From Candidatus Micrarchaeota archaeon (GTDB lineage: Archaea; Micrarchaeota; Micrarchaeia; Anstonellales; Bilamarchaeaceae), in assembly GCA_041694845.1 (NCBI GenBank), contig JBGFRY010000030.1, positions 1 through 40,511 of the forward strand: a stretch of 40,511 nt of DNA. Direction: 5' to 3'. The notes beneath the pieces were generated by a model. The model saw only the letters and a program-made list of their open reading frames with translations, ran no database searches and was not told the DNA's origin. The translations under genes and the position numbers were made by a program. Of this stretch, positions 2,550 through 31,341 are shown in pieces (positions within the stretch are counted from its first letter, which is position 1; every line of letters begins with the position of its first letter).

Positions 2550-3188
2550 ATGCCAGTTATAGATGAAGAAACAAAAAAAATTATCAAACAAAAATTTAAT
2601 GCGTTAAATAATCAAATAAAATTGACATTTTTTAAACCAGAGAATGAATGTACCACGTGCCATTATGCTGAAGAAATGATTAGCGAATTAGCAACATTAA
2701 CTTCTAAAATAAACAAAGAAGTTCTTATTTTTGAGCAGAATATTACAAATGCAAAGGCACTTGGCATCGATAAGGCACCAGGGCTAGCTATGCAGAATGA
2801 TAAAACTATACTGCGATATTACGGATTTCCAAGCGGTTATGAATTTGAAACATTTTTAATTGATTTAATTGATTTATCACGCGGAGAAATAGATATATTC
2901 CAAGAATTAGCTAAAGAAGTCAAAAAAATTAATTTCCCAGTGCATATTCAAGTTTTTGTGACTCCACAATGTCCCTACTGTTCATCAATTGCTAAAGTTG
3001 CACATGATTTTGCAATGATTAATCCAATGATAAAAGGTGATGTTATTGACATCACTGTTTTCCAACAGTTAGGGGAGAAATATAATATAATGTCAGTTCC
3101 TTTCACAGTAATCAATGAAAAACTTATACTAAGAGGTACCTACCCCCCAGATGTAATAATAAAAAAAATACTTGAACTCAAACATTAA
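2550..3188 (+). CDS. Protein disulfide oxidoreductase, glutaredoxin/thioredoxin-like with two CXXC units (PfPDO-like)
   Basis: Two thioredoxin-fold halves with CTTC (N-terminal half) and CPYC (C-terminal half), plus the SVPF cis-Pro region. GGTGG Shine-Dalgarno precedes the ATG. Confidence 0.75.
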   Translation: MPVIDEETKKIIKQKFNALNNQIKLTFFKPENECTTCHYAEEMISELATLTSKINKEVLIFEQNITNAKALGIDKAPGLAMQNDKTILRYYGFPSGYEFETFLIDLIDLSRGEIDIFQELAKEVKKINFPVHIQVFVTPQCPYCSSIAKVAHDFAMINPMIKGDVIDITVFQQLGEKYNIMSVPFTVINEKLILRGTYPPDVIIKKILELKH

Positions 3189-7780: not shown

Positions 7781-8116
7781 TCATAACCTTTTGCTAAGTG
7801 TATTTAGATACTCCTTTGTAAATTTTAAAACTCCCTCCCCTTTTTTAGTCAGAACATAATACTTTCTGCGTTCAATAGTTTTTTGTTTTCCTTTGATTAT
7901 CCCTTCATCTTCTAGTTTATACAAAACAACATATAACATAATTCTGTTTGGTCTGAAGAAAAATTCCTCTTCTAATTGTTTATCAAGTGTATATGCGTAA
8001 ACTTCTTTTTTCTCTTTTATTAGCGATAGTATATACATCCAAATATTCCCATAACTAAGCAGATGTTTAAGCCTTTTTGTTGGTCTTGTATCCATTATAT
8101 TATTCAATCGCGTCAT
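7781..8116 (-). CDS. PadR-family winged-helix transcriptional regulator
   Basis: YILSLIKEKKEVYAYTLDKQLEE...LYVVLYKLEDEGIIKGK...RKYYVLTKKGEGVL is the PadR pattern. It is transcribed divergently from the membrane-protein operon. Confidence 0.8.
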   Translation of the reverse strand: MTRLNNIMDTRPTKRLKHLLSYGNIWMYILSLIKEKKEVYAYTLDKQLEEEFFFRPNRIMLYVVLYKLEDEGIIKGKQKTIERRKYYVLTKKGEGVLKFTKEYLNTLSKRL

Positions 8117-8179
8117 GATAAACTCCCTAGTAGTAATAATTTTATCAACATATATAAATTTTACATTTATAGTATAAGT
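8117..8179. promoter_or_regulatory. Divergent promoter region between padR-like gene and paralog operon
   Basis: 63-nt A/T-rich spacer with tatataaatttt about 25-30 nt upstream of ATG 8180. Confidence 0.45.
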
Positions 8180-9427
8180 ATGCTGATACGCTTTGTAGCA
8201 ATCTTCTTTTTCGTTACTACGATGATGCTTTCAGTTTCTTTTGCTGTTGATGAGTTTAATATAGTCCAATCAGGCCTTTTTTGGATAGTTCTCCCTGCAA
8301 CTGCCATAACAGTTATCGTGATTATATCGCTAGCTTCTATGCTTAGTCATGCATTTAATATGCCACAGCTTGAAGCATGGGCAAAGATAGAGTTTAGAGA
8401 ATTTATAATTGGCGTAATTCTTTCTGTGATCGTATTATCAATATTCTTGACCCCAGATCTTATAAGCATTCTCACAGGAACACCAAATTTTGTTACTTCA
8501 TCTATAAATACATTAACTGTATTTCGGGATAATTATCTTCTTGTTGCTTATACATCAACTATATACGCATCTCATGAGCTTACTCTTTTAACAGGTTATA
8601 GATATATCTATCCAATTAGTTTTCTATACTTTTCTCACACCGATGTCACCGCACCATTCACAGGTGTTGGTACGCTTCTTTTATTAGTTTCACATGCAGC
8701 AGCAGGGCTTTCAACTGCCATAATGGTATATAACTCAACTATCGTTCTTTTAGAATTCTTTCTCGTAGCGTCAGTATTGCTCCTTCCATTTGCCCTCTCA
8801 TTACGTTTAATCCCATTTAGCCGCAGGCTTGGCACAACAATGATCGCACTTTGTGTTGGTGCATACATCTTTCTCCCATTTTCGGTTTTCCTTGTATCAC
8901 AATTTCATACCCAGATTAATTTAGTAGATCTTGATAAAATGATAGAACTTAGTTCAAGTGAGCTTAATGCTATCCATCTTACTATTCCAATTGGATTCGG
9001 CGATCTTTGCAAAAATGATGCATTTAAGTTATTTACATCATTGCCAGGCGAGATCTGGGGGATAATATCCGGGATTTCATATTGCATACCAAGCTGTGCT
9101 GGAACAGGTCCTGGCTATGCAGCATGTTACACTGCGTGTTTTGCCAGTGTTTGGAGTTATACAGTCTATCATGCCTACCCATTTGCAAATGACATTGTGC
9201 AATTAACATATGGCACGTCTTTTTATTTAGCGAACAAGTTAAGTGGTATAGATGCAGGTATAGTATACAATATTATACATGAATTTCTTAAAGGTGTAAA
9301 TAGTATAGTTCTGTTAAGTTACATTAACGTTCTTGTAATAGGGATCATAACATATGTTGGAATAAGAAGTGTATCAACTGCATTAGGTGGCGAATATATG
9401 CTACCAGCAATTCAGAAGTTGATTTGA
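8180..9427 (+). CDS. Paralog 1 of 6: polytopic membrane protein, uncharacterised family
   Basis: Signal-like N-terminus MLIRFVAIFFFVTTMMLSVSFA. Family motifs AFNMPQLEAWAKIEF, LPFALSLRLIPFSRRLGTTMIA and C-terminal IRSVSTALGGEYMLPAIQKLI. Cys-rich loop YCIPSCAGTGPGYAACYTAC. Start moved to ATG 8180 because the ORF from 8063 overlaps padR. Confidence 0.8.
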   Translation: MLIRFVAIFFFVTTMMLSVSFAVDEFNIVQSGLFWIVLPATAITVIVIISLASMLSHAFNMPQLEAWAKIEFREFIIGVILSVIVLSIFLTPDLISILTGTPNFVTSSINTLTVFRDNYLLVAYTSTIYASHELTLLTGYRYIYPISFLYFSHTDVTAPFTGVGTLLLLVSHAAAGLSTAIMVYNSTIVLLEFFLVASVLLLPFALSLRLIPFSRRLGTTMIALCVGAYIFLPFSVFLVSQFHTQINLVDLDKMIELSSSELNAIHLTIPIGFGDLCKNDAFKLFTSLPGEIWGIISGISYCIPSCAGTGPGYAACYTACFASVWSYTVYHAYPFANDIVQLTYGTSFYLANKLSGIDAGIVYNIIHEFLKGVNSIVLLSYINVLVIGIITYVGIRSVSTALGGEYMLPAIQKLI

Positions 9428-10419
9428 TGAAAAGTAAACTGCAATATTTCTTCATTTTACTTTTGCTGATATCACTTTCATTTGCAGAACAGCTTAGCTG
9501 CAGCAGTAATGCTACGCATTATATTTTGAATTTCGAGGATAATCGCCTCCTGCTTCCAGGCATTCTAGCATTTACTGTATTTATGATCATACTTGCATAC
9601 ATGATAGGAAAAACTACGAATAATCCGCAGTTCCAGATTTTTTATAAGGATGAGATGTTCCATCTTTTCTTTTCACTTGCTATATTAGTTGTTTTTTCAG
9701 GAATCTTATTTTTCTCATGTGAAGCTATGCGATTATTCTTTGATTTCTATGTTCAAAAAGCCGGAATTATATCACCTCATTATACCTCTGGTAAATCCCT
9801 TCTTGACATCGCTTATGATATGATTTTTTATATGAGTTCTGACGCATCTTATTTTTCAGGACACCTAATCAAAAAAACAATAGATGCAACAATGTCGTCT
9901 ACGTGGGGTTATTCGTTATATTTTCCATTTTATGGCGGACTTACAATTGCTACAAATGCCTACAAAAGAACCCATGCTTTGCAATATGATAGCCTAAACA
10001 CATTTTTTATCTTGCCAGCTCTTATTAGCATTAACGTACAAAAATTACTCCTTAAATTTGTCATTGATTATGGTGAAGTTTATCTCCTACCACTTGGCTT
10101 TTTCTTAAGGTTATTTCCAAGTATGCGCCAGATGGGGAATATTGTCATCGCATTTGCACTTGGTCTTTTTACAATTCTCCCTTTCATGTATGTTTTAAAT
10201 GGGTTGATGTATGATGTTGTTACGCCACCACCACCACAAGGATGTGATCAATCAATGAAAAATATAATAGACGATCATGTAGTTGGTGATTGTGGTAAGA
10301 ATAGCTTTTACACTGCTGCAAGATTACTCCCCCAGGCATTTTTCCTTCCTAACTTAACACTTGCCATATTTATAACCTATCTCGCTGCAATAAATAAGGC
10401 ATTAAGGGTGTTGGGATGA
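9427..10419 (+). CDS. Paralog 2 of 6: polytopic membrane protein, uncharacterised family
   Basis: Signal-like MKSKLQYFFILLLLISLSFA. Motifs NNPQFQIFYKDEMF and LPLGFFLRLFPSMRQMGNIVIA. PPPP-Q-G-C...C loop. The C-terminal tail is shorter than in the others. The ATG overlaps the P1 stop (TGATG). Confidence 0.8.
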   Translation: MKSKLQYFFILLLLISLSFAEQLSCSSNATHYILNFEDNRLLLPGILAFTVFMIILAYMIGKTTNNPQFQIFYKDEMFHLFFSLAILVVFSGILFFSCEAMRLFFDFYVQKAGIISPHYTSGKSLLDIAYDMIFYMSSDASYFSGHLIKKTIDATMSSTWGYSLYFPFYGGLTIATNAYKRTHALQYDSLNTFFILPALISINVQKLLLKFVIDYGEVYLLPLGFFLRLFPSMRQMGNIVIAFALGLFTILPFMYVLNGLMYDVVTPPPPQGCDQSMKNIIDDHVVGDCGKNSFYTAARLLPQAFFLPNLTLAIFITYLAAINKALRVLG

Positions 10420-12350
10420 AAAGTTTTAAATTTTCAGTTTTCAGTTTTGTTCTAATCATTTTCGTGCTACTAGCTTTACTTTCACTCTCATACACGCAAG
10501 ATGTAACAGAAATATTGCAAAAAACAGAGCAGACATCAGCATTCGAACTTGTTAAAGACTGGCGCGTTCTTTCACTTTTGGCTGTAATGTTTTCTGTGAT
10601 AGTTGTAGCCATTGTTTACATGGTCGGTGTTGGATTTGATATGCCTGATCTAAAAGGTTTTGCAGCTGTTGAATTAAACCAAACAATCGTTACCGCAATC
10701 ATTGTTGCAGTACTTTTGTCAACTATAACTTTTCTTGATTTAATTACTGCAATGTTTGTGAATGAGAGTGATATACTAGATCCTAATAATCCAGACACTA
10801 TTCTAAATTGCGGACCAACTGATTTTTGTGCGAAAAAAATATCCCAGGCATATTTCAAAGACCTGTTAGATACTATAAATAATGCAGCCCGTGGAAATCT
10901 TATCTCTGCATTTAATTATGCAGAAGAGGCTGCAAGCAGAACTGGCTGGTCGTGCAACACATTTATTCTACCGATCCCATGTCTCTGGGGGTCTTTTTCC
11001 TATGCAGATGGTGCGCATCTTATCCTTCAAACAGAGCGGTTGAATATTGTATTAGAAACATATGCAACTATTCTTTCTTCTATCTATGCTCAACAATTTT
11101 TCATTGAGAAAATTTCATTTACTATTGCACCTGCACTTCTTTTGATTGGTATAGTTGCTAGGACACTCTTTTTTACACGAAAGCTTGGCGGCCTTTTAAT
11201 GGCAATAGGAATAGGAGTAATGTTTGTTTTTCCGACTATGTACGTGTTTAATTGGTTTACTATGAACGTAATGCTTTTTGGCGATGCTGTAGTCGGCGTA
11301 TATGGTGCAGTTTCCTGTCCAGAGGAATGCAAAACTGCACCTCTTGCATTTGAGAGTTCTTCGCCAATTACACCACCTAAAATGCAATTCACTCAGTATT
11401 TTTCAGTTAATGAATTATCTAAACGTCTCGAGGAATCAGGAGCAGCTCAAACAAATGACAAAGCAGCTACCTTGGCATATAACTTATCCACAGGCAAAAT
11501 CGAATCTGTCACCATAAGTGGTAATATAAAAATTTATTCATGCGAGTGGATGGCAAATCATACTGCGTTTGCGCAATATGGAGGATACTGTCCACAAGAG
11601 TGTAGAATTATTCCATATCCTGCTCTTCCAAAATGCCTTAATTATACTACGCAATTTGCCTGTGCAGCGTTGGATGGTAGTTGCAAATATATTCCATACG
11701 TAGATCTTATAGCACATCCTGATAATTATAATACACCAAAAAAATGCCCAAAAAAATGCCGTACTATTCCTCCACTTTCAACAAATTGCGATTATATAGA
11801 ATCATATAAAACTCTGAAAAAGAAAGAGTATAACTGTATCTACTCTCCAATTGAATGTCGTGTTGCATTAAAAGATAATCAAAACTGGAGACTAGAAGAC
11901 TGCCTTTCTACTGATAAATATAAAGTCATGATGCCAAATGGAACTCAAGTAGAGACATTCACAAAGGCAACATTAAAGTCATGTGTTGCTGTTAAAGATG
12001 ATCCTTATTCTTCATGCGCATATCAGATAGCAGATGAGGAGACATTAGAGAAAGAATGTGATGGTTGCGTTTTTGTTCCTGTTCAGTACACATTTGACCC
12101 ACCAATATATCTAAACTGTTTGGACGGATGCTCTCAACAGGATACGCCATTGATTTCTCCTGCTGATGTTACAAAGCAATCAAACAAAGGAATGGTTGGT
12201 AGAGATGACATAAAGAATGTAGCATCAGTCCTATTACCTAGTTTTCTTCTTCCACTTCTTAATATTCTTGTTACTGTTATGTTCATAAAAACATTTTCTC
12301 CACTTTTTGGAGGCGATATTGAAATTCCTGGTCTGCAAAAGGTGTTATGA
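10416..12350 (+). CDS. Paralog 3 of 6: polytopic membrane protein with roughly 300-aa Cys-rich insert
   Basis: Motifs GFDMPDLKGFAAVEL, IGIVARTLFFTRKLGGLLMA and C-terminal IKTFSPLFGGDIEIPGLQKVL. The loop between the last two TM segments is expanded (about nt 11304-12224) and holds about 20 of the protein's roughly 24 Cys (hand count). ATGA overlap with the P2 stop. Confidence 0.85.
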   Translation: MKSFKFSVFSFVLIIFVLLALLSLSYTQDVTEILQKTEQTSAFELVKDWRVLSLLAVMFSVIVVAIVYMVGVGFDMPDLKGFAAVELNQTIVTAIIVAVLLSTITFLDLITAMFVNESDILDPNNPDTILNCGPTDFCAKKISQAYFKDLLDTINNAARGNLISAFNYAEEAASRTGWSCNTFILPIPCLWGSFSYADGAHLILQTERLNIVLETYATILSSIYAQQFFIEKISFTIAPALLLIGIVARTLFFTRKLGGLLMAIGIGVMFVFPTMYVFNWFTMNVMLFGDAVVGVYGAVSCPEECKTAPLAFESSSPITPPKMQFTQYFSVNELSKRLEESGAAQTNDKAATLAYNLSTGKIESVTISGNIKIYSCEWMANHTAFAQYGGYCPQECRIIPYPALPKCLNYTTQFACAALDGSCKYIPYVDLIAHPDNYNTPKKCPKKCRTIPPLSTNCDYIESYKTLKKKEYNCIYSPIECRVALKDNQNWRLEDCLSTDKYKVMMPNGTQVETFTKATLKSCVAVKDDPYSSCAYQIADEETLEKECDGCVFVPVQYTFDPPIYLNCLDGCSQQDTPLISPADVTKQSNKGMVGRDDIKNVASVLLPSFLLPLLNILVTVMFIKTFSPLFGGDIEIPGLQKVL

Positions 12351-12353
12351 TTT

Positions 12354-13376
12354 ATGATAAAACTCCGAACGCTGATAGTTGCAATATTGATTTCTTTCCT
12401 GTTTCTCACTAATATAATATTTGCAGGTTGGTTAGAGCTTACTGCACAGGCGCTATTACTCTCTTTTATGATTCTTGCTTTAATGTATATGATCGCTATT
12501 GGCTTTACAATAAACGAGCTCAAATTTCTTGCCCAAGAGGAGTTTTGGCAACTCATAGTTACAGTTGTTATGGTCGCATTGCTTTACAGTACACACACGT
12601 TCTTTGATTCTTTATTTGCTTCACCAGAATTTGGAGCAAATGGTGGTGTGCAAAAAGCATCCATTAAGATCTCGCAAGATATAATATCAAAATTAGATTT
12701 GATATTCGAGAATGTAAAAGATCAAGCTGATGATGCTGGCAGAGAATCTTCAATAAGTGTTTTCTGTTCATTTATGGGTACATCTGTTTACGTTGCAGCA
12801 TGTGGGTCATATCGAGCAATAACCCCAATTTACTCTACTTCCTATCAAGTTCTCTCAATCGCATTAATGGAAGAAAAATCGCTAGAGATACTTCTTACTA
12901 TCGGTTCAAAATACGCATTTACAATATTTCTCCCATTAGGTATATTTTTGCGTACTTTCAAATTTACTAGAGGAGCTGGCGGATTTTTGATAGCACTTAG
13001 CATTGCATTTTATTTTGTCCTTCCTCTTACTGTATTTATTTTTGATGAATTAGCAAAAACAGCAAAGAGTAATATAGAAAATGTACCTCCTGGTTCAATC
13101 ATTAAGCCAATTAATCTAGAGGTTCAAAATCTTAATAAGATTAATGAATGCGATATGTACAACCCTGATCGTGCTGATGAGAATAGCAATGTCGATTCTG
13201 TTGTCAGTGCATTAAATGATATGAACAGTAAATCTATGGGATATCTATATGTTATGCTTGTAAATGCTAGTTTGGGAGTTATAATCCCGATAGGCGCTAT
13301 GATTGCTTCGATAAGAGCATTTTCTGCTCTTGCTGGTGCAGAGGTGGATGTAAGCGCACTTTCTAGAATTGCGTAA
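12354..13376 (+). CDS. Paralog 4 of 6: polytopic membrane protein, uncharacterised family
   Basis: Motifs GFTINELKFLAQEEF, LPLGIFLRTFKFTRGAGGFLIA and C-terminal IRAFSALAGAEVDVSALSRIA. Starts 3 nt after the P3 stop. Confidence 0.85.
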   Translation: MIKLRTLIVAILISFLFLTNIIFAGWLELTAQALLLSFMILALMYMIAIGFTINELKFLAQEEFWQLIVTVVMVALLYSTHTFFDSLFASPEFGANGGVQKASIKISQDIISKLDLIFENVKDQADDAGRESSISVFCSFMGTSVYVAACGSYRAITPIYSTSYQVLSIALMEEKSLEILLTIGSKYAFTIFLPLGIFLRTFKFTRGAGGFLIALSIAFYFVLPLTVFIFDELAKTAKSNIENVPPGSIIKPINLEVQNLNKINECDMYNPDRADENSNVDSVVSALNDMNSKSMGYLYVMLVNASLGVIIPIGAMIASIRAFSALAGAEVDVSALSRIA

Positions 13377-13390
13377 TTGGTTGGTTAAAT

Positions 13391-14407
13391 ATGGTCGCAG
13401 GGCAATTGTTATGTGATGGTGACGGTGCTCTTGGATTTTCGCAAATAATTACTGATAGTATCATTCCGCTTACTGCATTTGCAGGAGTTATCACTTCTAT
13501 CATTGTAGCGCTCTCTTATATGTTTGGAGAAATGATCCAAAACCAAAAAATTATCGTATGGGCAAAAACAGAATTCTTTCAAATATTCATTTCACTTGCA
13601 TCAGCTTTGTTGATTGTTGGTCTTATAAACTCTTTTTGCACATTCAATTTTTCAGATATAGTTGCACTTACGCAGGATAAAACAATAATATCACCTACAT
13701 TAGCTCACCAGAATATTTATGATGCTGCAAAAACCTATTTGGAGGATGTAGCTAAATACTCACATGATGTATTAAGAGGACAAAGGGCGATGCTCGCAAG
13801 ATTCAACATGCTAGAAGGAAGAGCACGCTGGTATTGTCTTAGCTATACTTTTTGTCTCTTTAATCCATCAGGCTACCATACCGCACCTTATGCTGGTGTT
13901 GCACTTGCTTCTGCTGCATTCACTGTTTCTTTCAATACTTCCCTGTTTTCTTACCTCTCTTCTCTAAATTATTTGTTTATATTAAATTATACATACAGTG
14001 GGATAGCACTACTATTCATTCCATTTGGGATTTTCCTTCGTTCAATGCCATATATGCGCTCTTTTGGGGGTTTAATCTTAGCTGTTGTATTTTCATTTTT
14101 ATTTATCTACCCAAGTCTATTGGCAATATTTAATATTATAGGAAGCGTTATAACACAATCAAGTTGTCCTACTGATGAAGGAATTATAGAAGCATTAGGT
14201 AAGAATGTTATGCAGGAAGAAGGAAACAATGAAGAATCTACAGTTCCTTGCAATTATGCAAATACAATAATGGACAGTAGCGGCGCATTTATTTTCGCAG
14301 TGTTTCTTCCAACAATTGCATTAGTTGCCACTATCGCTAGCATTCGTTATGTAGCTCGTTTACTAGGTGAAGATATCGATCTTAGTAGGGTAGTTCAAAT
14401 GATGTGA
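13391..14407 (+). CDS. Paralog 5 of 6: polytopic membrane protein, uncharacterised family
   Basis: Motifs MIQNQKIIVWAKTEF, IPFGIFLRSMPYMRSFGGLILA and C-terminal IRYVARLLGEDIDLSRVVQMM. Confidence 0.85.
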   Translation: MVAGQLLCDGDGALGFSQIITDSIIPLTAFAGVITSIIVALSYMFGEMIQNQKIIVWAKTEFFQIFISLASALLIVGLINSFCTFNFSDIVALTQDKTIISPTLAHQNIYDAAKTYLEDVAKYSHDVLRGQRAMLARFNMLEGRARWYCLSYTFCLFNPSGYHTAPYAGVALASAAFTVSFNTSLFSYLSSLNYLFILNYTYSGIALLFIPFGIFLRSMPYMRSFGGLILAVVFSFLFIYPSLLAIFNIIGSVITQSSCPTDEGIIEALGKNVMQEEGNNEESTVPCNYANTIMDSSGAFIFAVFLPTIALVATIASIRYVARLLGEDIDLSRVVQMM

Positions 14408-14413
14408 TATGAT

Positions 14414-15442
14414 GTGGTTGTCATGAGTGAAATATCAATTTTCCTTGAAGATCTTCAAAATAAAGGGCTTTGGTTCAGCCTTCCACTCATAGCCACGTTT
14501 ATCGTCATCCTCATAAGAGGATTGCTTGTTGGAATTGGCCATGCATTTAATATGCAAGAACTCGAAAGAAATTCAAAAGCTGAAATCATTCAGGCTATTG
14601 CAACATTTTTGATTCTTGTATTTATTGTTGAAATAATTCTTGGAGTAGAATCATATATCATAAAAGATGTGCTTGGTGCGGCTAGCTATATAAAATGTGG
14701 TGCAAATCAAATTCCAGTTGTTGATCCAAATACTGAAAATACTCTTAATCTCATGGAAGTCATAAAATGCCGCGTTAATGAAAAGGCATATATGCTTGCA
14801 GACATGCAGGAAAAAGTATATTCAAATGCATACTGGCCTTTTTGGAAACTTTCTATTGTAGTTTCTGTTGCTGGAGTACCAGCATTCCAGGGAAGTTGGA
14901 TTGATACGTGGTTTAGCGAAGCAGAGCAGATGCGTTTACTTAATATAGTAATTACTACTTTGTTAATTGGTCTTAATGGAATACTAGTTTTCATAAATTA
15001 TGTCAAGAGTAACATGCTGCCAGTGTTCTTGCCAGTTGGCATTGTTTTGCGTGCCTTTAATTTTACAAGAGGAGTTGGCGCATTTTTCATTTCTATTGCT
15101 TTAGGGCTTTATCTAATCTTTCCATTAATTTTCGTTCTAACTGACCCAGGATTCGTTAAGGTCAGTAGCTATGAGGTGTTTCCGCAGCAGATAAAACCAA
15201 CTAGCTGTTACCCAGTTTTTTCAGGAGTTGTATCTGCAGTAACAGCTGCTCAACAGGATTCTGCAGTAGGCTCAGCATCAATCATTCAAAAAACAGTTAG
15301 CGATCTTCAAAGTATTTACATGTTATTACTTCTGCATCCGTTTGTTGTTCTTGCAATTACTTTAATATTTGTGAGATATCTGATGTACTTATTTGGTGGC
15401 GAGCCACAGGATATCATGCGTTATGTTGCGAGGGTGATTTGA
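14414..15442 (+). CDS. Paralog 6 of 6: polytopic membrane protein, uncharacterised family
   Basis: Motifs AFNMQELERNSKAEI, LPVGIVLRAFNFTRGVGAFFIS and C-terminal VRYLMYLFGGEPQDIMRYVARVI. GTG start at 14414, or in-frame ATG at 14423. Confidence 0.85.
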   Translation: MVVMSEISIFLEDLQNKGLWFSLPLIATFIVILIRGLLVGIGHAFNMQELERNSKAEIIQAIATFLILVFIVEIILGVESYIIKDVLGAASYIKCGANQIPVVDPNTENTLNLMEVIKCRVNEKAYMLADMQEKVYSNAYWPFWKLSIVVSVAGVPAFQGSWIDTWFSEAEQMRLLNIVITTLLIGLNGILVFINYVKSNMLPVFLPVGIVLRAFNFTRGVGAFFISIALGLYLIFPLIFVLTDPGFVKVSSYEVFPQQIKPTSCYPVFSGVVSAVTAAQQDSAVGSASIIQKTVSDLQSIYMLLLLHPFVVLAITLIFVRYLMYLFGGEPQDIMRYVARVI

Positions 15443-18400
15443 TGATAAGAAGGAATAAAAATAAACACTATCTATTAACATTTGTTTTTATTGCCATTAT
15501 GATTATTGTCTTTATTAGTATTTTTGCCACTGCAGGTTGCACTATTAAGAAAAATACAAGTTTTGGTTGCTGTGATAAAAAATACGCAGCTCAGAACGGA
15601 GAATGCAAATATATTGACAGTAATATGGATCAATACAAAAAGGATCTTGGTCTTGAATCAGGAGAGGTTATTCAAACCAATAACTGTGATATTAAAAAAG
15701 GCTATTGCAATGTTTCAATTAACAAGATTACTCAAGCTAGTCCAGATTCTATAGAAATTCCAATCTGTTCTCAACCAGAGATTACTGATTGCATTCAGTC
15801 AAATTGCAATGCAATGGTTTGTGGTCCATTTAAGTTTACTCCTTCACTTCCGTCATCAGGATTTATAGCTATTGAATCAGGTTCAAAAGGTTATTCTCCA
15901 GAGATGCTAACAGGTCTAATGGGTTCAACATGTAAATTCGTTCCAATAGATGAAAATTTAAAAAATGTTTTTAAGAATACCCGCAACTCGTTCGTGAATA
16001 CATTTAGGGTTGGTTTCGGCCCTAGTTTTGAAAGCTACCAGCGTGGAAGTCTTATCTATCCTCATACAGATAAATTTTGTGGTATTAACCCAGTAGGTAC
16101 AATGGACAGATTTGAAAATTATCTCATCACTCTTGATAGTGCATCTGTTCTTAATGGAAAGAGCATTGATTATGCAGAACAGCATGGCTTGAAGATTTTT
16201 AATCCTGTTAAATATTTCAATGATCCTGGGATTTGCATTAATGATACTCTTATTGAGCCCTTCAACACAACTAATTACGGATATTCTGTTAGTGGTGTGC
16301 AACCTGCTTATACGAATTTTATGAATTCCTATAAATTTACTTATTACAACAAACAAGTTGGTATTCTTAAAGAAGGTGGTTTTGTTTCATTAGATAGTTT
16401 GAGCCCTATTAATCTCTATACTTACTCTCAGATTGACAGGGCGTTCTATGCAAAGGCTCTTCCTTTCATCTATCGAGGCGATTATGATATCGGAAATGTG
16501 AAAATGCCATTTGAATGTAACTTAGAAGCAACAGAGTGTAAATCAGGAACATGTGCAACAAAGGATTATTCAAGAGAAGTATGTATTGATAAGGATACAG
16601 GAGAGGCAGTATTCTGCGATTGTATCACATGGTCTGACAACAAAGGTGATGGATTATTGGGCGCTGGTAATGCTGTTCTTTGCATGCCAAGATGGTGGTA
16701 TGGAGACTTTTTGATGAGCGATCTAACACCATTAGATGAGGAGTCCTCTATAAATTATGAAAAAATCATGGATACCTCTTATATGGCATATCCGCTAACA
16801 ATATCTACAAATATAGAAACTAGGTTAGCAGAATCTCATATGAACGAACTAATATTTAGAAATATAGAAACTAAGTCAGTAGGATATAATATGGACGAAC
16901 TTGTTCTAAATAGAGATAATTGGAACGTTGGCGGCTTGGATTCACTATTTCCTGCTGCAATAGTTTTCTTTGGCTCAATGGAAGGTGATGACTACAAAAA
17001 CGTTCGTGAAAACCACCAAGAAGAAATAGGTTTTAGCCTTCTTCTAAAAGATCAATTTGAGAATACTGCACTAGTTAAAAATTGTCAGATGAAAGAAGGG
17101 ATAGATTATATTGTTTATAATTTTACATCGTATGATCAGGCGGATTCTTTTGGGCATGTGCCGTATGGTTACTATAATTATGAAGATATTTATTATGAAG
17201 ATAATTATTATAAAGAGGATTATAGATATTCGCCAAATTATATAAGCATACTCTCAACAGGGAGATGCAAACTTGAAAAAGGCTCGCATGAAGAGATGCC
17301 AAAACTTAGGAGATATGGATGGTGTGAGCCATGCAGTTATGCAACTATAGCACTTCAAGTTGTTAAAACAACAACACCGAGTTATTTGCCAGGAGCTATA
17401 ATACCTCTTCTTCCACCATCTGTTTCTAGTTCAAAAACACAGGCATCTGCTGATGCATACCAAGGCCTTGATGGCTGGTGCGATCCTTCCTCTTATTGTA
17501 AATCGTTATGTAGTATAGGATGCAAGAAATGGGATTATGGTTCTTGCGATGAATATTACGACCAATCACTCACTGACCCAATAATATTTGGAAGTTCTGG
17601 AACTTTATGGCATCCTGCGACAGGAATAAAATGTGGTGATGCATATCCATGGCCAACAACAAATCCAGAGATAACATATCTGCAAACACAGCTTACTGAT
17701 CTACTCTCTCGCGGAGTTCTGCCTGTGCTTGATCTTTCTGATGATGAAATATGGAAAGCAGTTCAAGTAAAAAACATCTTCGGGAGTAAAATAGGTGAAT
17801 ATAGTGATTATAACATCAAATATCTATTAGGATTAAATAAAGGACCAATCATTGTTGTTATTAAATCATTCGATAGCCAAATTTCTGATCATTCATCTAT
17901 TGATGCACTTATTAAATATAGAAGCGAGCAGGTTAAATATTACTGCTCAAAATGCCTTGTTGCTGTTCATGTTTCTAATGCAAATACAGAAAACGATCTT
18001 AAAACTCTTGAATCGCTTTTTAAACTTATACCTAACCATAGTAGTTGCTATGATTTTAAAGATATTCCTGTATTCTGCAACAAAGATTTAGTTAATGCAA
18101 TTGATATAATTACGTTCAATGTTAATCTAAAAGATTACAGCGATAACACCATATGCACTGCAACAGATGTTCCTTATTACTCTTACATGCCAATAGTTAC
18201 TAACATTACGCAATTTGGAAGAGATGTTTTATATCTCTTCCAAAAACCAACTCTTATTCAACACTTCAATGCAACAGGTTTCTGCGGTAATGATGAAAAA
18301 AAGACGCAATCAGCGCTTTCTTATATGTTTACCAACCAGCTTCATTTTGCAAAAGCAGGTATAACTGGTATGATTATAACAAATCCGGATTACAAAACAT

Positions 18401-19038
18401 ATTCTAATCCTTTGCAGGCTAGTGATTATAGCACTCTTAATATACCAGACAGTTGTGCACTTGAGAAAGCATCGCACTTTATTTTAGAAGGGAAGCAGGC
18501 ATATCTCTATCAAAAACAATATACAATGCCGCAGGATAAAGTGCTATGCATGAAAAAAAATGATATCGAAAAAATAATAGATCCTTCAGTTAATTTAAAA
18601 TGCGCAAATGGAGCAGAATGCACTCTTCCAGTAGGTGCAACTAATAAAGCAGATTATAAATGCCAACAAAACAACATCCCTGAGCCCTGTAAGCAATGTG
18701 CTCTTGATACGCGACAACTTGAATGTAGGATAACCCAGTTAGACGGCAGTAAATTAACTAATATCTATAATATTACTGACTTCAATGACGCATACCAGCA
18801 ATTTATTGGAAGCATGCCTTATGGTGAGCAGTGCTGCCTTCAAGGTAGTACTGGGTTGAATTACACATATATAAAAAATACAATAACGCCAAAAGCAAGT
18901 GCACCTTTAATGTATTCAAAAAAAGGTTATGAGAATGAAGATTGTGGTCAGATGGATACTTCTATGTTTGATACATTATGTGGGATGCCGATGCTTCCTC
19001 AAGTAAGCACTAATAAAATAGAATGCAAAATAAAATAA
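15442..19038 (+). CDS. Giant Cys-rich exported protein, predicted lipoprotein (about 1,198 aa)
   Basis: N-terminal TM/signal ends in the lipobox-like FATAGC. About 49 Cys by hand count and many N-x-S/T sequons. No domain recognised by eye. The ATG overlaps the P6 stop (TGATG), so it is co-operonic. Confidence 0.85.
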   Translation: MIRRNKNKHYLLTFVFIAIMIIVFISIFATAGCTIKKNTSFGCCDKKYAAQNGECKYIDSNMDQYKKDLGLESGEVIQTNNCDIKKGYCNVSINKITQASPDSIEIPICSQPEITDCIQSNCNAMVCGPFKFTPSLPSSGFIAIESGSKGYSPEMLTGLMGSTCKFVPIDENLKNVFKNTRNSFVNTFRVGFGPSFESYQRGSLIYPHTDKFCGINPVGTMDRFENYLITLDSASVLNGKSIDYAEQHGLKIFNPVKYFNDPGICINDTLIEPFNTTNYGYSVSGVQPAYTNFMNSYKFTYYNKQVGILKEGGFVSLDSLSPINLYTYSQIDRAFYAKALPFIYRGDYDIGNVKMPFECNLEATECKSGTCATKDYSREVCIDKDTGEAVFCDCITWSDNKGDGLLGAGNAVLCMPRWWYGDFLMSDLTPLDEESSINYEKIMDTSYMAYPLTISTNIETRLAESHMNELIFRNIETKSVGYNMDELVLNRDNWNVGGLDSLFPAAIVFFGSMEGDDYKNVRENHQEEIGFSLLLKDQFENTALVKNCQMKEGIDYIVYNFTSYDQADSFGHVPYGYYNYEDIYYEDNYYKEDYRYSPNYISILSTGRCKLEKGSHEEMPKLRRYGWCEPCSYATIALQVVKTTTPSYLPGAIIPLLPPSVSSSKTQASADAYQGLDGWCDPSSYCKSLCSIGCKKWDYGSCDEYYDQSLTDPIIFGSSGTLWHPATGIKCGDAYPWPTTNPEITYLQTQLTDLLSRGVLPVLDLSDDEIWKAVQVKNIFGSKIGEYSDYNIKYLLGLNKGPIIVVIKSFDSQISDHSSIDALIKYRSEQVKYYCSKCLVAVHVSNANTENDLKTLESLFKLIPNHSSCYDFKDIPVFCNKDLVNAIDIITFNVNLKDYSDNTICTATDVPYYSYMPIVTNITQFGRDVLYLFQKPTLIQHFNATGFCGNDEKKTQSALSYMFTNQLHFAKAGITGMIITNPDYKTYSNPLQASDYSTLNIPDSCALEKASHFILEGKQAYLYQKQYTMPQDKVLCMKKNDIEKIIDPSVNLKCANGAECTLPVGATNKADYKCQQNNIPEPCKQCALDTRQLECRITQLDGSKLTNIYNITDFNDAYQQFIGSMPYGEQCCLQGSTGLNYTYIKNTITPKASAPLMYSKKGYENEDCGQMDTSMFDTLCGMPMLPQVSTNKIECKIK

Positions 19039-19124
19039 ATATAAATAAATAATGTAAATTAATATATAACTTATATAAATGAGTATATAGATAAGTTAAA
19101 TAATCATAGAGCGATTTGATTCAC

Positions 19125-22100
19125 ATGATTCGGTCAGGTTTAATTAGTTCTAGTATTTGTGTATTCTTTCTCTTTATATTTACTTCAACCGGTTTCTCGC
19201 AGATGCCAGTGATGTGCATACAAGGGCAGCATTTTTACACTTATTTTTCAACAATGCAAAATGAATCACAAACTATTATAAGTAGTCGTCTTGTTTATGA
19301 GAATATTGCAGTCAAGCCACCATTACAACCTGTTATATTTGCTCCATTATTTATATATGTATATAACGACACATGGGATGGTAAACTAATTCTTACCTAT
19401 ACTAATAATGATGGCTATGCAACTATAAATATCTCAAAGCATGTGCCTGAGAAAAGTTGTTACAATGTAAGAATTATCTACTGTAATGCTGATGAAATAA
19501 CCATCTCTTGTCTTGAAAATTTCGGTGTAAAAAAACCTATATTAGATTGGTTGAAAGCACAAGCGCAGATTGAAAAGATAAGTACTCTTATGTTCTATCC
19601 AATTTCAATTCTTAGTTTTAGTAGTGATACTTTTGACATGAGTTTATTTAAGAATTCGCCTTCAGGTCCTCTGTCGTTTTTCACTCCTAAGTGGTACCGA
19701 TATTATACAAGCCAAATGCCAGATACCTATTCTCATTCATCAACTATTACATTAAGCTCTGCATTAGATGAGATTCAGATGTGTGGTGGTGGCGCAACAG
19801 TTGCTCCTGCAGCAACAGTATCATTTTGCATACCTTTAATATTGATATTCGCGCTTATGGCAGGAGGGCTTTTCCTCTCTGGAAAAAACCCACTTATGGG
19901 ATTTGATTTTGCAACACCGAGAATTGGTAAATATTACGGAAGATACAGTGCTCGTGGAAGAGGATGGTTTTTTGATTTAAGCTCAATAAGAACTTTTGCA
20001 TCAGGAATTCAATCTGCAAAATCAGATGTAGTGAATCTTAAATCAGAAGGATATATTGGGATGATTACAAGAGATATTAAATCTATGTTCAGTGGTTTAA
20101 CCACATCTTCTGAAAAAGTTAAAGATAGTGCTAAGACACCAGGAAGTGCTTCAAGCGTCAGCCAAGCTGCTGTAAAACTTGGTCTTGGTACTGGAAGAAG
20201 AGGAATGGCTTTGTTCGGGTTGGAACGTGTTGCAGGTGGTGGCGGGATAGTTGCAAAAGGCAAGGCAGTATCATATATTTCGAGTAGATGGGGAGAGTAT
20301 AAACAAGAAAAAGGAAAAGATGCTATAGTTTATGGCCACAGTCACACTGTTTCAACAATTTTAGGAGCTATCATAGGATATTTTGATCTCCCTGGTATAA
20401 TTAATTGGATAAATGTTTTTGCAGGAACTCAAAAGGACTGGAAGCAGATTTTTGGGAACCTGGCAAAACCAAGTAAGTCGAATGCGCGAGAAACACTTAA
20501 AAAAACTGGACCAAACGGTGAAGGCATTCAAATTAGCTATGAATATGAGAGTATTAACTATGAATATGCGAATCAAACAACAAAAAACAAATATAAGAAA
20601 ACTTTTACTTTACAGCAACTTCATGATGGAAAATTTATAATAACTGTAGATGAGAAAAAGATTACAGTTAACACAAGCGATCAAGATGATGTTGGAAAAG
20701 CTGCAAAAGAATTAGGTATAGAACCACAACGGATCATTGAGATGAAAACAGAGTTCGAGAAGCAGAGAACTGCAGCTGCTTTTGTTGTTTTTGAAGCAGC
20801 ACATGCAAGAAATATGAAAGTAGGCAGTACTATTAGCTCATTAGCTTCAGAGATGGCTAAGAAGATAGAAGATAGAATTAAAGAATATGAAGAAAGCAAA
20901 GAAACTGCAACTGATCTTAATGATGTAATAAAAAAAATCGCCATGCTCCAAAAAGAAAAAGAGAACTATCAAATAATTGCAGCATATTATGCAGGGCATG
21001 TTGATAATGATAGATACAATGATGCAGTAAAAGATTTATATTCAAGTAAAAAAATGTCAGATGAGATTGGATTGCAAATAGATATTTTTAACATAACAAA
21101 GAAAGAAGTGGAATATACACAACGGTTTGCAAATACTTCATTTATTATCTTTAATATTTTGCAACAACAAAAACAGGTTTCATCATCACTTAATGGAGAA
21201 ATCAGTGCTGCAACTGATTCAGTTAGTAAACTTGGAGACTATATATTGAAAGCATCAAATCAATCAAAAGATGTTTATGATGAAACATTTTCTAAAAAAA
21301 TTGAATTGGCAATTGCTGATGCAAATCTTAAAACTGCACGTGCAGAAGCAGCAGGTGCTTTATATTATACTCTTCCCCCAGATACTAAGCTAGAGGATTT
21401 TCAGAAATTGAAATTGCCAGAACTAGATATAAATGTCCCTGCAGAAATGGATAAAAACTACTTTGTTCATAAGAAAGCCGAGATCTATAAAGATCTTACA
21501 AAACTATACACAAGTGTTTCTCAGTATGCTCTTTATATCGAAAATGAAAATGTAGGACCGCGAGTCACTCCCAAACTTGCAGATGACATAGCAAATATAG
21601 GGAATTATGCTGTGAAATCTGCAAAAACTATTAGTGATGCCTCTTTAATGTTGGAGACTCTATTAATCGCTTCATCTGCTGATCACTATCTAACAGATTA
21701 TTCTACAATAAATGGCCTTATTGTCCTTTACGCAACTGATAAAACTGATAATCAACGAAATAATCGCATTCAATATATGAATATATATCTTGAGGTTAAC
21801 AATAACCACAACGCAGCGCAGCGAAAAGCGCTTGGAGGGATGATGGAGACAGAAGATGGTGTTAATAAAGTGATGAGCTGGTTAGAGAGCCGTAGTAGTG
21901 TACCTAAATATAAAACTATCGTAGAAGGAATAAAGGATGGAACAATTATAAGAGTACGAGAAAGAGATATGGATCTTAATAATCCAGCTATCAAAAGTGC
22001 AGTTGCAGACGTACTAGTAAAGCACTTACCAGATCAAGATTTAGATCGCTTTCTTGAGTTAAAAATAGATTACAAAAAAGGATTTGAAGAATTATTTGCA

Positions 22101-22346
22101 GTACAGTATAAGGCTCCGGCAGAGAGTGATAGTGATGAAAATAAGCAGAAATATGAAGATCATTTAATAGAGATTTATAAGAAAATGGAGGACCCTATAG
22201 TAAAAATTGTTACTGACAATATCAAAGTATATAATGATAGGATATCCATAGCTGACGCTACTGAAATAGTTAAAAGATTACAGAACCGCGGTCTTAAACA
22301 AACTGCCGATAAATTTAAAACTATTTATTTGTCAGATAAAAAATAA
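19125..22346 (+). CDS. Large bitopic membrane protein: exported N-domain, one TM, roughly 800-aa helical cytoplasmic region
   Basis: Signal-like MIRSGLISSSICVFFLFIFTSTGFSQ. Beta-rich N-domain of about 200 aa. TM VSFCIPLILIFALMAGGLFLSG (about nt 19812-19880). Then a Gly/Arg-rich linker and a long Lys/Glu/Ala-rich predicted helical region. An own A/T-rich promoter-like spacer lies at 19039-19115. Alternative TTG start at 19116. Confidence 0.8.
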   Translation: MIRSGLISSSICVFFLFIFTSTGFSQMPVMCIQGQHFYTYFSTMQNESQTIISSRLVYENIAVKPPLQPVIFAPLFIYVYNDTWDGKLILTYTNNDGYATINISKHVPEKSCYNVRIIYCNADEITISCLENFGVKKPILDWLKAQAQIEKISTLMFYPISILSFSSDTFDMSLFKNSPSGPLSFFTPKWYRYYTSQMPDTYSHSSTITLSSALDEIQMCGGGATVAPAATVSFCIPLILIFALMAGGLFLSGKNPLMGFDFATPRIGKYYGRYSARGRGWFFDLSSIRTFASGIQSAKSDVVNLKSEGYIGMITRDIKSMFSGLTTSSEKVKDSAKTPGSASSVSQAAVKLGLGTGRRGMALFGLERVAGGGGIVAKGKAVSYISSRWGEYKQEKGKDAIVYGHSHTVSTILGAIIGYFDLPGIINWINVFAGTQKDWKQIFGNLAKPSKSNARETLKKTGPNGEGIQISYEYESINYEYANQTTKNKYKKTFTLQQLHDGKFIITVDEKKITVNTSDQDDVGKAAKELGIEPQRIIEMKTEFEKQRTAAAFVVFEAAHARNMKVGSTISSLASEMAKKIEDRIKEYEESKETATDLNDVIKKIAMLQKEKENYQIIAAYYAGHVDNDRYNDAVKDLYSSKKMSDEIGLQIDIFNITKKEVEYTQRFANTSFIIFNILQQQKQVSSSLNGEISAATDSVSKLGDYILKASNQSKDVYDETFSKKIELAIADANLKTARAEAAGALYYTLPPDTKLEDFQKLKLPELDINVPAEMDKNYFVHKKAEIYKDLTKLYTSVSQYALYIENENVGPRVTPKLADDIANIGNYAVKSAKTISDASLMLETLLIASSADHYLTDYSTINGLIVLYATDKTDNQRNNRIQYMNIYLEVNNNHNAAQRKALGGMMETEDGVNKVMSWLESRSSVPKYKTIVEGIKDGTIIRVRERDMDLNNPAIKSAVADVLVKHLPDQDLDRFLELKIDYKKGFEELFAVQYKAPAESDSDENKQKYEDHLIEIYKKMEDPIVKIVTDNIKVYNDRISIADATEIVKRLQNRGLKQTADKFKTIYLSDKK

Positions 22347-22361: not shown

Positions 22362-22700
22362 ATGGGATTTTTAAGCGATATTTTAAAGACAATGGTTGGA
22401 GGAGGTATAGAGGTAAAAAAAGGACCTAAGCAGAAATGCCCTAATTGCAAGGAAGATATTACTTTGGATATGAAGCGCTGTCCTAAATGTGGGGTTCATA
22501 TAAGCTCAATGTTTAGAATGAAATGCCCAAAATGTAAAGAACTGAACGAGCTTGATGCAAAAAAATGCAAGAAGTGTGATTATAATTTTGAAGCAGAGCT
22601 AAAACGTGCTGAAGAAAGTGTTTATATATGCCAAATATGTCAGTATAAAAGTAAAGTGTTTCTTACTTCCTGTCCTGCATGCAATACGAGATTTATATAG
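22362..22700 (+). CDS. Triple zinc-ribbon protein
   Basis: Six CxxC pairs in 112 aa: CPNC/CPKC, CPKC/CKKC, CQIC/CPAC. Confidence 0.7.
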   Translation: MGFLSDILKTMVGGGIEVKKGPKQKCPNCKEDITLDMKRCPKCGVHISSMFRMKCPKCKELNELDAKKCKKCDYNFEAELKRAEESVYICQICQYKSKVFLTSCPACNTRFI

Positions 22701-22738: not shown

Positions 22739-23314
22739 GTGTATGAGAAATTTAAAACCGATACAAACCAAGAAGAAAAAAAAGAAAAGAAAGATGTAGA
22801 AAAGAAAAAATTTAATATTTTGCTTGAAGAGGACAATGTTGAGATAAAGCTTCTTGAAGAAGCTGATGTTGAAGAAGTAGTAAAAGTCATGCGAAAATGC
22901 TCGTTTGACGTTACAGATAAAGAAGTTTCTCTGATTACTGTATATGGGATGTCTTTTGGTGCTTTTGTCAACCGTATACTTATTGGTGTTGGGCTAGGCT
23001 GGCCTGCAAATTTTGATGAAAATCAAAAAAAGATTATGGGTGGAGAAGCTAACGCTATATATATGGAAGATGCAGCAATTTTGATCTCTTACGAAGGAAG
23101 AGGAATTAGAAGAATTCTTCTAAAAGAAAGAGAAAATGAAGCTAAAAATCGTAATTTTCTTTACTCTGTGGCTTATCTCTCAGCTGACTTACCAAAAAGC
23201 GGGGTTGACGACTACATAAAAGAAGCTGGAAGTCAAGTTGAGAAACTCTATCTATCAGAGAGTTATGAATTTATGAAAACTGATAAAGGCATTTTAGTAA
23301 TGAAAAAATTATAA
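22739..23314 (+). CDS. GNAT-family N-acetyltransferase-like protein with Lys/Glu-rich N-terminal tail
   Basis: The ILISYEGRGIRRILLKERENEAKNRNF block resembles the GNAT acetyl-CoA motif A (R/Q-x-x-G-x-G/A). The surrounding beta/alpha pattern is compatible. GTG start. Confidence 0.55.
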   Translation: MYEKFKTDTNQEEKKEKKDVEKKKFNILLEEDNVEIKLLEEADVEEVVKVMRKCSFDVTDKEVSLITVYGMSFGAFVNRILIGVGLGWPANFDENQKKIMGGEANAIYMEDAAILISYEGRGIRRILLKERENEAKNRNFLYSVAYLSADLPKSGVDDYIKEAGSQVEKLYLSESYEFMKTDKGILVMKKL

Positions 23315-31084: not shown

Positions 31085-31341
31085 TTTTTACTTGATATTC
31101 TTGTTTTTTTAGAAAGATACCAAATACAATATCCTGCGACTCCTATTGATACTACTAGCATAATTGTGCTTGGTAATAAACTAGATAAATCTACTTTTTC
31201 TTTGCCTTCAGCAGAAGTATATTGTAAAGATGGCATTTCTAAATTCTCCCATAAAAATAATGCTGTGCTTAATGCAATCATGATGCTTATCGCAAGAACA
31301 ACAATTACGTTAAAATGACTTGTTATTTCGTTATTTGACAT
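31081..31341 (-). CDS. Small two-TM membrane protein downstream of atpD
   Basis: 86 aa with two clear hydrophobic helices. The start overlaps the atpD 3' end by 19 nt. Its stop shares a palindromic CTAG with the stop of the convergent dsbA-like gene. Confidence 0.5.
   Translation of the reverse strand: MSNNEITSHFNVIVVLAISIMIALSTALFLWENLEMPSLQYTSAEGKEKVDLSSLLPSTIMLVVSIGVAGYCIWYLSKKTRISSKN

Follow-up and report, generated by a model that had tools for sequence, protein, structure and literature searches.

Six paralogous membrane proteins in a fixed-order array of Micrarchaeota, with a possible distant kinship to CedA, CedE and VirB6

In this study, a 40,511-nucleotide contig of a Candidatus Micrarchaeota archaeon (GenBank assembly GCA_041694845.1, contig JBGFRY010000030.1; the whole stretch is called the window below) was analysed around a tandem array of six genes for polytopic membrane proteins, g1 to g6. 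A preliminary description made from the letters alone had placed six consecutive same-strand genes at positions 8180-15442, and an open reading frame (ORF) check found these coordinates and the lengths given for the proteins to be correct. The junctions between successive genes are −4, −4, +3, +14 and +6 bp, and all six genes lie on the + strand. The array continues into genes for a giant protein (BIG), a bitopic protein (CC), a zinc-ribbon protein and a GNAT-like protein, and a divergent regulator gene stands on its other side (Table 1). We report that the six genes are diverged copies of one membrane protein family and weigh whether this family is a very remote relative of the CedA, CedE and VirB6 subunits of type IV secretion system (T4SS)-like machines.

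All-against-all alignment confirmed that the six proteins are paralogs with one shared architecture. All 15 protein pairs were colinear at 21-31% identity (blastp E 1e-5 to 1e-16 within the six-sequence set), and Smith-Waterman scores were 87-192 for the real pairs versus 35-64 for reversed partners. Compared with shuffled sequences, the real pairs gave z = 4.6-22.5; the shuffles were confined to 20-residue windows, thereby keeping the hydrophobic and transmembrane (TM) layout. Five residues are invariant among the six (g1 numbering): E71, R209, R215, G218 and P233, the proline lying in TM4. In a 77-sequence family alignment the two arginines, the glycine and the proline are likewise invariant, and E, L, G and the glycine of the C-terminal tail are at least 90% conserved. 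The three sequence signatures proposed earlier were borne out. All six quoted strings of motif 1 were found, with E71 as the invariant glutamate; the two invariant arginines claimed for motif 2 are R209 and R215; and motif 3, said to occur in five of the six proteins, is missing from the C-terminal tail of g2 alone, which ends in ...NKALRVLG, as do all its orthologs. The proposal that N-glycosylation sequons mark the variable loops did not hold: 14 were observed versus 13.7 expected, some of them in TM or cytoplasmic segments, and sequon enrichment was rejected.

Table 1. Features of the six-gene locus and its flanks (positions in the window)
Feature	Coordinates	Strand	Description
PadR-family transcription regulator	7781..8116	-	Divergent from g1; Pfam PadR E 7.5e-13
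Divergent intergenic region	8117..8179		63 bp; A/T-rich TATA-like ATATATAAAT ~30 nt upstream of g1 ATG
g1	8180..9427	+	415 aa; 5 TM and signal peptide; outside loop 4 of 130 aa, with Cys
g2	9424..10419	+	331 aa from TTG; 330 aa in NCBI call
g3	10416..12350	+	644 aa; same core plus ~320-aa insertion in outside loop 4 with 22 conserved cysteines
g4	12354..13376	+	340 aa; AlphaFold-modelled member
g5	13391..14407	+	338 aa; no signal peptide; C-tail LGE(E/D)IDLSR
g6	14414..15442	+	342 aa; no signal peptide; top family-HMM score of the six, E 1e-104
BIG	15439..19038	+	1199 aa; N-terminal membrane anchor/signal, large Cys-rich ectodomain; overlaps g6 by 4 bp
CC	19116..22346	+	1076-aa bitopic protein; 77 bp after BIG
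Small cytoplasmic zinc-ribbon protein	22362..22700	+	Pfam DZR E 1.5e-9; four CxxC
GNAT-like protein	22739..23314	+	191 aa; weak Acetyltransf_1 match, E 0.0078

The predicted layout of the six proteins comprises an outside N terminus, five TM helices and a cytoplasmic C terminus, with a signal peptide in g1-g4 only; this topology is a prediction from hydropathy, positive-inside residues, the g1-g4 signal peptides, cysteine placement and an AlphaFold model. By hydropathy and the g4 model, TM1 leads through a short cytoplasmic loop with motif 1 into TM2, followed by an outside region of about 100 residues with a long helix and a beta-hairpin, TM3 and a cytoplasmic R-x5-R-x2-G turn. TM4, a variable outside loop of 50-320 residues (loop 4), TM5 and a cytoplasmic acidic tail complete the chain. 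The layout predicted for the family agrees with that of the CedA/CedE/VirB6 superfamily, in which the N terminus is outside, the C terminus cytoplasmic, the number of TM helices about five and the outside loop that follows TM2 the largest. The AlphaFold2 model of g4 has a predicted local distance difference test score (pLDDT) of 91.3 and a predicted TM-score of 0.83, and its TM helices extend as helices of 35-48 residues well past the membrane. A g6 model from a 10-sequence alignment reached a pLDDT of 59.9 and was left out of the fold search.

Among g4 orthologs, the mean top-residue frequency is 0.83 in the cytoplasmic turn, 0.64 in the C-terminal tail and lowest, at 0.27-0.38, in the outside loops. 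Despite this low loop conservation, the outside-loop cysteines are near-invariant among orthologs, and conserved cysteines occur only in predicted outside loops, which supports the earlier suggestion that the cysteine-bearing loops are probably extracellular. In several paralogs the near-invariant outside cysteines are odd in number (g4 C138/C150/C266; g6 C95/C119/C265; g1 C277/C298/C316), and loop 4 has one conserved cysteine, equivalently placed from paralog to paralog, for which no partner within the chain is obvious. This odd loop-4 cysteine may form disulfides between subunits or with BIG.

The family was delimited by a profile search of 1.84 billion cluster representatives, in which 2,920 proteins passed a threshold of E<=1e-3 and 2,135 one of E<=1e-10, the counting unit being clusters at 50% identity. 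Members are 316-1683 aa long, and the extra length is located in outside loop 4. By these comparisons the picture is one of predicted surface parts that change quickly on a fixed membrane core. In one Anstonellaceae metagenome-assembled genome (MAG), the array at L036:1518-9870 holds a g3 homolog of 1352 aa and a g5 homolog of 1062 aa. Members are annotated at their source as "hypothetical protein" and carry no Pfam domains. No significant match to the six proteins was found in Pfam or NCBIfam, a Pfam search with 77 family members gave single-member noise only, and a sequence-profile search of the PDB with the family gave 0 matches at E<=10. The FlaJ/TadC/GspF family (T2SSF, PF00482) was not matched in Pfam, NCBIfam, the PDB sequence-profile search or Foldseek, and no description of such arrays was found in full-text literature searches that combined DPANN or Micrarchaeota with VirB6, CedA or VirB4. 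The family had been called unrecognised; this stands as regards Pfam, NCBIfam and the PDB, by sequence or by fold, and has to be qualified by the recurrent sub-threshold CedA and CedE matches treated below.

The named relatives of the six proteins all come from Micrarchaeota MAGs. A scan of GTDB species genomes for g6-type patterns, which are narrow, found 36 loci, 33 of them labelled as Micrarchaeota lineages; the labels were Micrarchaeota, Micrarchaeia, Bilamarchaeaceae and Anstonellaceae, with two loci given as "uncultured archaeon" and one as "Ca. ainarchaeum". The family is likely restricted to the phylum Micrarchaeota.

The order g1-g2-g3-g4-g5-g6-BIG recurs, with none of the six lost or changed in copy number, in about 30 Micrarchaeota loci, and each positional gene in those loci has the window paralog of the same position as its best match. 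Conservation of the six-gene synteny in relatives, proposed as a check in the preliminary description, is strongly borne out, with six orthogroups in the same order. Individual positions also keep their character: g1 matches the family hidden Markov model (HMM) at E 1e-46 and its position-1 orthologs in other genomes measure 394-468 aa, and every complete locus of the window type (type 1) has its long paralog (600-818 aa) at position 3. The main reason to suppose that each paralog would have a non-redundant place in one assembly is that six orthogroups are retained, unshuffled, in a phylum of reduced genomes. Together with the independent sister arrays, which also have six genes, this speaks against redundancy and for an assembly whose six subunits are non-interchangeable.

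The partner genes follow the array with similar regularity. BIG orthologs (960-1911 aa) stand directly after g6 in nearly every type-1 locus that extends past g6, and are conserved over the N-terminal ~400 aa and the C-terminal ~450 aa. No Pfam, NCBIfam or PDB match was found for BIG, the Pfam search including its orthologs, and a homolog search returned 2 proteins only. CC consists of a signal peptide, an outside domain of ~230 aa, one TM helix and a long, variable, coiled-coil cytoplasmic region; conservation among its orthologs is limited to the TM helix and juxtamembrane segment (residues ~230-315). Its orthologs are placed after BIG or divergently upstream of g1, and nothing was found for CC in Pfam, NCBIfam or the PDB sequence search, or for its orthologs in Pfam. 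The zinc-ribbon and GNAT-like genes are always paired beside the array, either downstream or divergently upstream (L027, L031, L033, L035), which suggests that the pair is functionally tied to the membrane complex.

A second, more divergent array, again of six genes, is present on some Micrarchaeota contigs, and one MAG holds both a window-type array (L009) and a second array (L039). In L041, the second array is followed by two 2-TM proteins of ~275 aa and a 501-aa P-loop ATPase (DUF87, AAA_10, TraG P-loop). With this ATPase as the query, 80 metagenomic loci were retrieved at 51-87% identity, and their flanks were scanned with the family HMM. A recurring operon emerged in the order p250, six family genes, tmA, tmB, ATPase, p98, p241 and p779. 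This operon of about 12 genes (L041, L047, L052, L057, L060-L062, L066, L073-L075, L081, L085, L090-L092, L098, L101) is apparently an undescribed Ced/T4SS-like system of Micrarchaeota-like organisms. In 24 loci the DNA reaches 9 kb or more upstream of the ATPase; exactly six family genes lie directly upstream of it in 17 of these, and five in one. The best NCBIfam matches of the ATPase are CedD (1e-19), CedB (8e-18) and a VirB4-like conjugal ATPase (2e-17), together with HerA, TraC and VirB4_CagE. Pfam and NCBIfam searches with the partners tmA, tmB, p98, p241, p250 and p779 were uninformative.

The sister-array proteins keep the family signature (E in 70/84, the two R in 81/84 and 83/84, G in 72/84, P in 84/84). 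When sister genes were compared with position-specific type-1 HMMs, the matching position was the raw row maximum at four of the six positions (p1-p4). After correction by hand for row and column means, the matching position was clearly the best at p1, p2, p3 and p6 and all six diagonal residuals were positive, which suggests en-bloc duplication of a six-gene unit already present in an ancestor. A third six-gene context was also observed (L037:8420-13669, L039:9332-14061); it adjoins an S49 signal-peptide-peptidase homolog and conserved secreted proteins of 492-561 aa with N termini that resemble the signal sequences of archaeal type IV pilins.

The paralogs could instead be alternative or partly redundant subunits, each forming homo-oligomers, with loops diversified for host range or surface variation. 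The outside loops are indeed the least conserved part and lengths vary hugely (316-1683 aa in the family; 1352 and 1062 aa in L036), and the tandem VirB6 paralogs of Rickettsiales are a precedent with unresolved stoichiometry. We consider this explanation quite unlikely, given that six orthogroups are kept in order in about 30 genomes without loss or copy-number change, that each paralog has its own conserved C-terminal tail and cysteine pattern, that the sister arrays again have exactly six genes, and that reduced genomes disfavour redundant copies.

The ATPase directs attention to the crenarchaeal DNA-import system Ced, in which CedA and CedE are VirB6 homologs, CedE having five TM helices (PMC11868833), and are proposed to form a hetero-oligomer (PMC11868833). 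In a scan of 77 family members against the 18,950 NCBIfam models, CedE was matched by nine members and CedA by seven (best E 2.8e-5 for CedA and 1e-4 for CedE), making 16 sub-threshold matches; of the other models, two were matched twice and the rest once. The alignments are colinear and cover family residues ~130-250, comprising the end of loop 2, TM3, the R-R-G turn and TM4, on the profile side CedA positions ~90-193 of 259 and CedE positions ~76-200 of 260. The g4 protein itself matches CedE with 17.2 bits (E 0.0034, residues 156-238), and in that same stretch of the protein CedA is matched by g4 orthologs (E 2.8e-5 to 5e-3). The TM1-TM2 hairpin of g2 weakly matches a VirB2-like pilin family (Mbov_0395, E 0.036), as does that of one other member. 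The N-terminal part of CedA/VirB6 is homologous to a VirB2-like pilin (PMC9905601), and similarity as faint as that seen here has been met within this superfamily before, since TedA and CedA, at 13% identity, were connected only via HHpred (PMC9905601). The CedA/CedE matches of the family and the CedD/CedB/VirB4-like matches of the ATPase therefore point independently to the same known system. The odds that the family is a very distant relative of CedA, CedE and VirB6 appear about even.

The likenesses to Ced are several: the proteins are polytopic membrane proteins like CedA, the five-TM CedE and TedA of Thermoproteales; CedA and CedE are the only curated models matched repeatedly by the family, over the TM3-turn-TM4 core; the N-terminal two-helix hairpin looks pilin-like, as in CedA; and CedD and CedB are the best matches of the ATPase that accompanies the sister arrays. 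The differences are also clear. Six paralogs stand in fixed tandem order here, in contrast to one or two in Ced; the window family has large disulfide-rich ectodomains, unlike CedA and CedE (~260 aa); the window operon has BIG and CC as partners instead of a CedB-like ATPase and a CedA1-like pilin gene; and the phylum, Micrarchaeota, belongs to the DPANN archaea.

A series of results weighs against a T4SS-related origin. The CedA and CedE scores are 16-24 bits, far below curated cut-offs of 330-400, and equivalog membership was not obtained (best among the proteins scanned singly, 23.8 bits for CedA, NF041796, and 17.8 bits for CedE, NF053657, versus cut-offs of 330 and 400). The family members used as queries are related to each other, so their matches are not independent, and a composition artefact is possible, the source organisms on both sides being A/T-rich. 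No CedA or CedE match was given by NCBIfam for 10 sister-array proteins. Pfam TrbL/VirB6 (PF04610) was not matched by the six proteins at E<=1 or by the 77 members at E<=0.1, and hhalign gave probabilities of 0.27% versus R388 TrwI and 0.13% versus a 9-sequence proteobacterial VirB6 alignment built from PLSDB. The family HMM found no match among all ORFs of R388 and the Sulfolobus conjugative plasmid pNOB8. A Foldseek search of the PDB with the g4 model gave nothing below E 0.085 and no VirB6 chain in the top 50, and a search of BFVD placed a TrbL-annotated phage protein third (E 0.4, TM 0.27), Foldseek being weak on long all-helical membrane proteins. No homolog of the ATPase was found in the 40.5 kb, nor of tmA or tmB, and no VirB2/CedA1/TedC-like 2-TM pilin gene in or beside the window operon; the only small 2-TM ORFs in the window are the ATPase proteolipid at 37318-37581 and an ORF at 31081-31341. 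A pilin gene could lie elsewhere in the genome. Finally, 6 of the 24 ATPase loci have no adjacent array, L049 among them having inverted operon genes upstream. The preliminary description had matched the motifs to no secretion or conjugation family. This holds as far as cut-offs and the bacterial VirB6 tests go, all of the latter being negative, and falls short in view of the CedA/CedE matches and the sister-array ATPase. A confident VirB6/TrbL match had been listed there as contrary evidence, and the CedA/CedE matches come near to this, at scores far under the cut-offs.

These same results leave room for a Micrarchaeota-specific envelope complex unrelated to T4SS, in which the CedA/CedE similarity would be compositional noise and the membrane base would anchor, export or organise BIG, or serve lipid or nutrient uptake. 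It would account for an operon that carries BIG, CC, a zinc-ribbon protein and a GNAT-like protein instead of an ATPase or pilin, for the uniformly negative VirB6 tests, for CedA/CedE matches far under the family cut-offs and for a fold without a PDB match. The nearest full-length look-alikes of the g4 model are the cryo-electron microscopy chains of TTYH2 and TTYH3 (Foldseek E 0.49, TM-score 0.20, not significant). TTYH proteins have five TM helices, an outside N terminus and an inside C terminus, with an ectodomain of extended TM helices, a beta-hairpin and disulfides. They are eukaryotic and without sequence similarity to the family, and the resemblance of the model would be architectural convergence at most. 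An envelope complex of this kind is possible though rather unlikely. Set against it are the 16 sub-threshold CedA/CedE matches among 18,950 models, nearly all others of which were matched once, the tight linkage of the sister arrays to a CedB/CedD/VirB4-like ATPase, and the known Micrarchaeota surface-layer (S-layer) protein, which differs (PF05123, few sulfur-containing residues). As candidates in their own right, identity with the S-layer protein was rejected, that protein being a different, Cys-poor PF05123 protein, and host-derived nanotubes were rejected, as nanotubes originate from the host (PMC11329633).

We favour the reading that the six genes encode non-interchangeable VirB6/CedA-like subunits in the hetero-oligomeric platform of a domesticated, T4SS-derived surface machine, and assign it a probability of roughly 0.5. 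The locus would then be a T4SS/Ced-like system with a six-paralog, VirB6-like platform and new partners. Because the sister six-gene arrays are coupled to a CedB/VirB4-like ATPase, the machine would most likely be a domesticated T4SS/Ced-like translocator. A single copy of every paralog would go into a hetero-oligomer, probably pseudo-hexameric, that would serve as a platform or channel in the cytoplasmic membrane. The most conserved elements, namely the motif-1 glutamate, the R-x5-R-x2-G turn and the acidic C-terminal tail, all lie on the predicted cytoplasmic side and may form a docking or gating surface. The VirB4/CedB-like ATPase of the sister operons would dock on this face; in the window version its cytoplasmic partner may be the CC juxtamembrane segment, or the ATPase may be supplied in trans. 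The long outside helices, the disulfide-rich loops, BIG and CC would make up the extracellular part. The assembly could act as a translocator, perhaps in DNA or macromolecule transfer at the cell surface of these host-dependent archaea, and one may plausibly guess at a role in interacting with hosts or in taking up DNA or other macromolecules. A T4SS-like role has been proposed for the VirB4-domain giant proteins of nanohaloarchaea (PMC10266531). More specifically, a hetero-hexameric VirB6-derived conduit with BIG and CC might be the Micrarchaeota side of a host contact or transfer apparatus, uncoupled from the ATPase and importing DNA, nucleotides or macromolecules; we regard this fuller version as doubtful.

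Bacterial systems offer two points of comparison. Agrobacterium VirB6 spans the membrane with about five TM helices from an outside N terminus to a cytoplasmic C terminus, and TM2 is followed by a large outside loop. The family shares with bacterial VirB6/TrbL the general idea of a polytopic inner-membrane T4SS subunit, in contrast to an absence of detectable sequence or profile similarity to those proteins (R388 TrwI, PF04610) and of any significant fold match in the PDB. In R388 the platform on which the T4SS stalk stands is a VirB6 pentamer (PMC9259494). Bacteria usually have one VirB6 gene, whose product homo-oligomerises and works with VirB2-5 and VirB7-11, partners that are absent here. 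The second comparison is with the obligate intracellular Rickettsiales, whose operons combine virB3 and virB4 with 4-5 tandem VirB6 paralogs, named virB6-1 to -4 or rvhB6a-e (PMC7648143). Host dependence, reduced genomes, diverged tandem paralogs in conserved order and some very large surface-exposed extensions are common to both, and the Micrarchaeota sister operon, with six paralogs, two small TM proteins and a VirB4-like ATPase, follows the same logic. Unlike the Rickettsiales case, the expansion seen here is an independent one in another domain of life and has six copies; the insertions interrupt the chain at an outside loop and are not C-terminal as in Rickettsiales VirB6, and the window array is uncoupled from the ATPase.

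Membrane proteins of this kind might also come from an integrated virus, plasmid or conjugative element, as T4SS-like modules usually lie on mobile elements and the proteins are unannotated. The setting of the locus makes this highly improbable. The family has no relatives in IMG/VR, PLSDB, INPHARED or BFVD, the guanine-cytosine content is even across the window (~0.31-0.40), no integrase is present in it, and no tRNA genes or Rfam matches were found in the 40.5 kb. The rest of the window is archaeal housekeeping (ScpB, adenylosuccinate synthetase (purA), Elp3, Sua5 and A-type ATPase subunits), and the surroundings of the locus on the chromosome are conserved: a PadR-AAA_18-ScpB block occupies the same upstream position in L002, L004, L007, L008, L011 and L026. 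The PadR gene is a candidate regulator of the six-gene operon, and the intergenic region 8117..8179 with its TATA-like ATATATAAAT is a probable archaeal promoter.

Further genes in the window were noted. The gene at 23359-25077 (-) encodes 572 aa with a signal peptide, a Lon_C (S16) protease domain at residues 47-209, a long helical region and a C-terminal TM anchor, without an AAA+ module. It adjoins the array in L004, L005, L008, L024 and L025 and often travels with it. The protein looks like an extracytoplasmic, membrane-tethered Lon-like protease and could process surface proteins. A 646-aa Beta_propel protein (full-length PF09826, E 1e-161) lies a few kb upstream of the array at 3736-5676 (+). 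The window also encodes a Thioredoxin_3-domain protein at 2550-3188 (+) and a DsbA-like (Thioredoxin_4) protein at 30314-31084 (+), a pair consistent with a need for extracytoplasmic disulfides in the Cys-rich ectodomains of g3 and BIG.

DPANN archaea attach to hosts and obtain material from them, and to our knowledge no transfer machinery has been identified in Micrarchaeota. The locus provides concrete candidates: a family of roughly 2,900 clusters, six distinct subunits, their own giant surface protein, and sister operons with a Ced/VirB4-like motor. Co-cultures of Micrarchaeota exist, namely those of Ca. Micrarchaeum harzensis A_DKE as well as ARM-1. If the link to CedA and VirB6 is true, T4SS-derived machines would extend into the DPANN archaea, and the tandem multiplication of VirB6 in Rickettsiales, itself unexplained, would have a counterpart in Archaea. 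The array would then be a natural hetero-oligomeric VirB6 platform with a distinct sequence at each ring position, which could show the arrangement of the least-understood T4SS subunit. Should the conduit reading be true, it would represent a previously unseen class of archaeal cell-surface machine built on a platform of six different subunits. If the CedA/VirB6 assignment fails, the locus would still encode what is probably a phylum-wide, structurally confident and uncharacterised six-subunit membrane complex, which would be more novel still.

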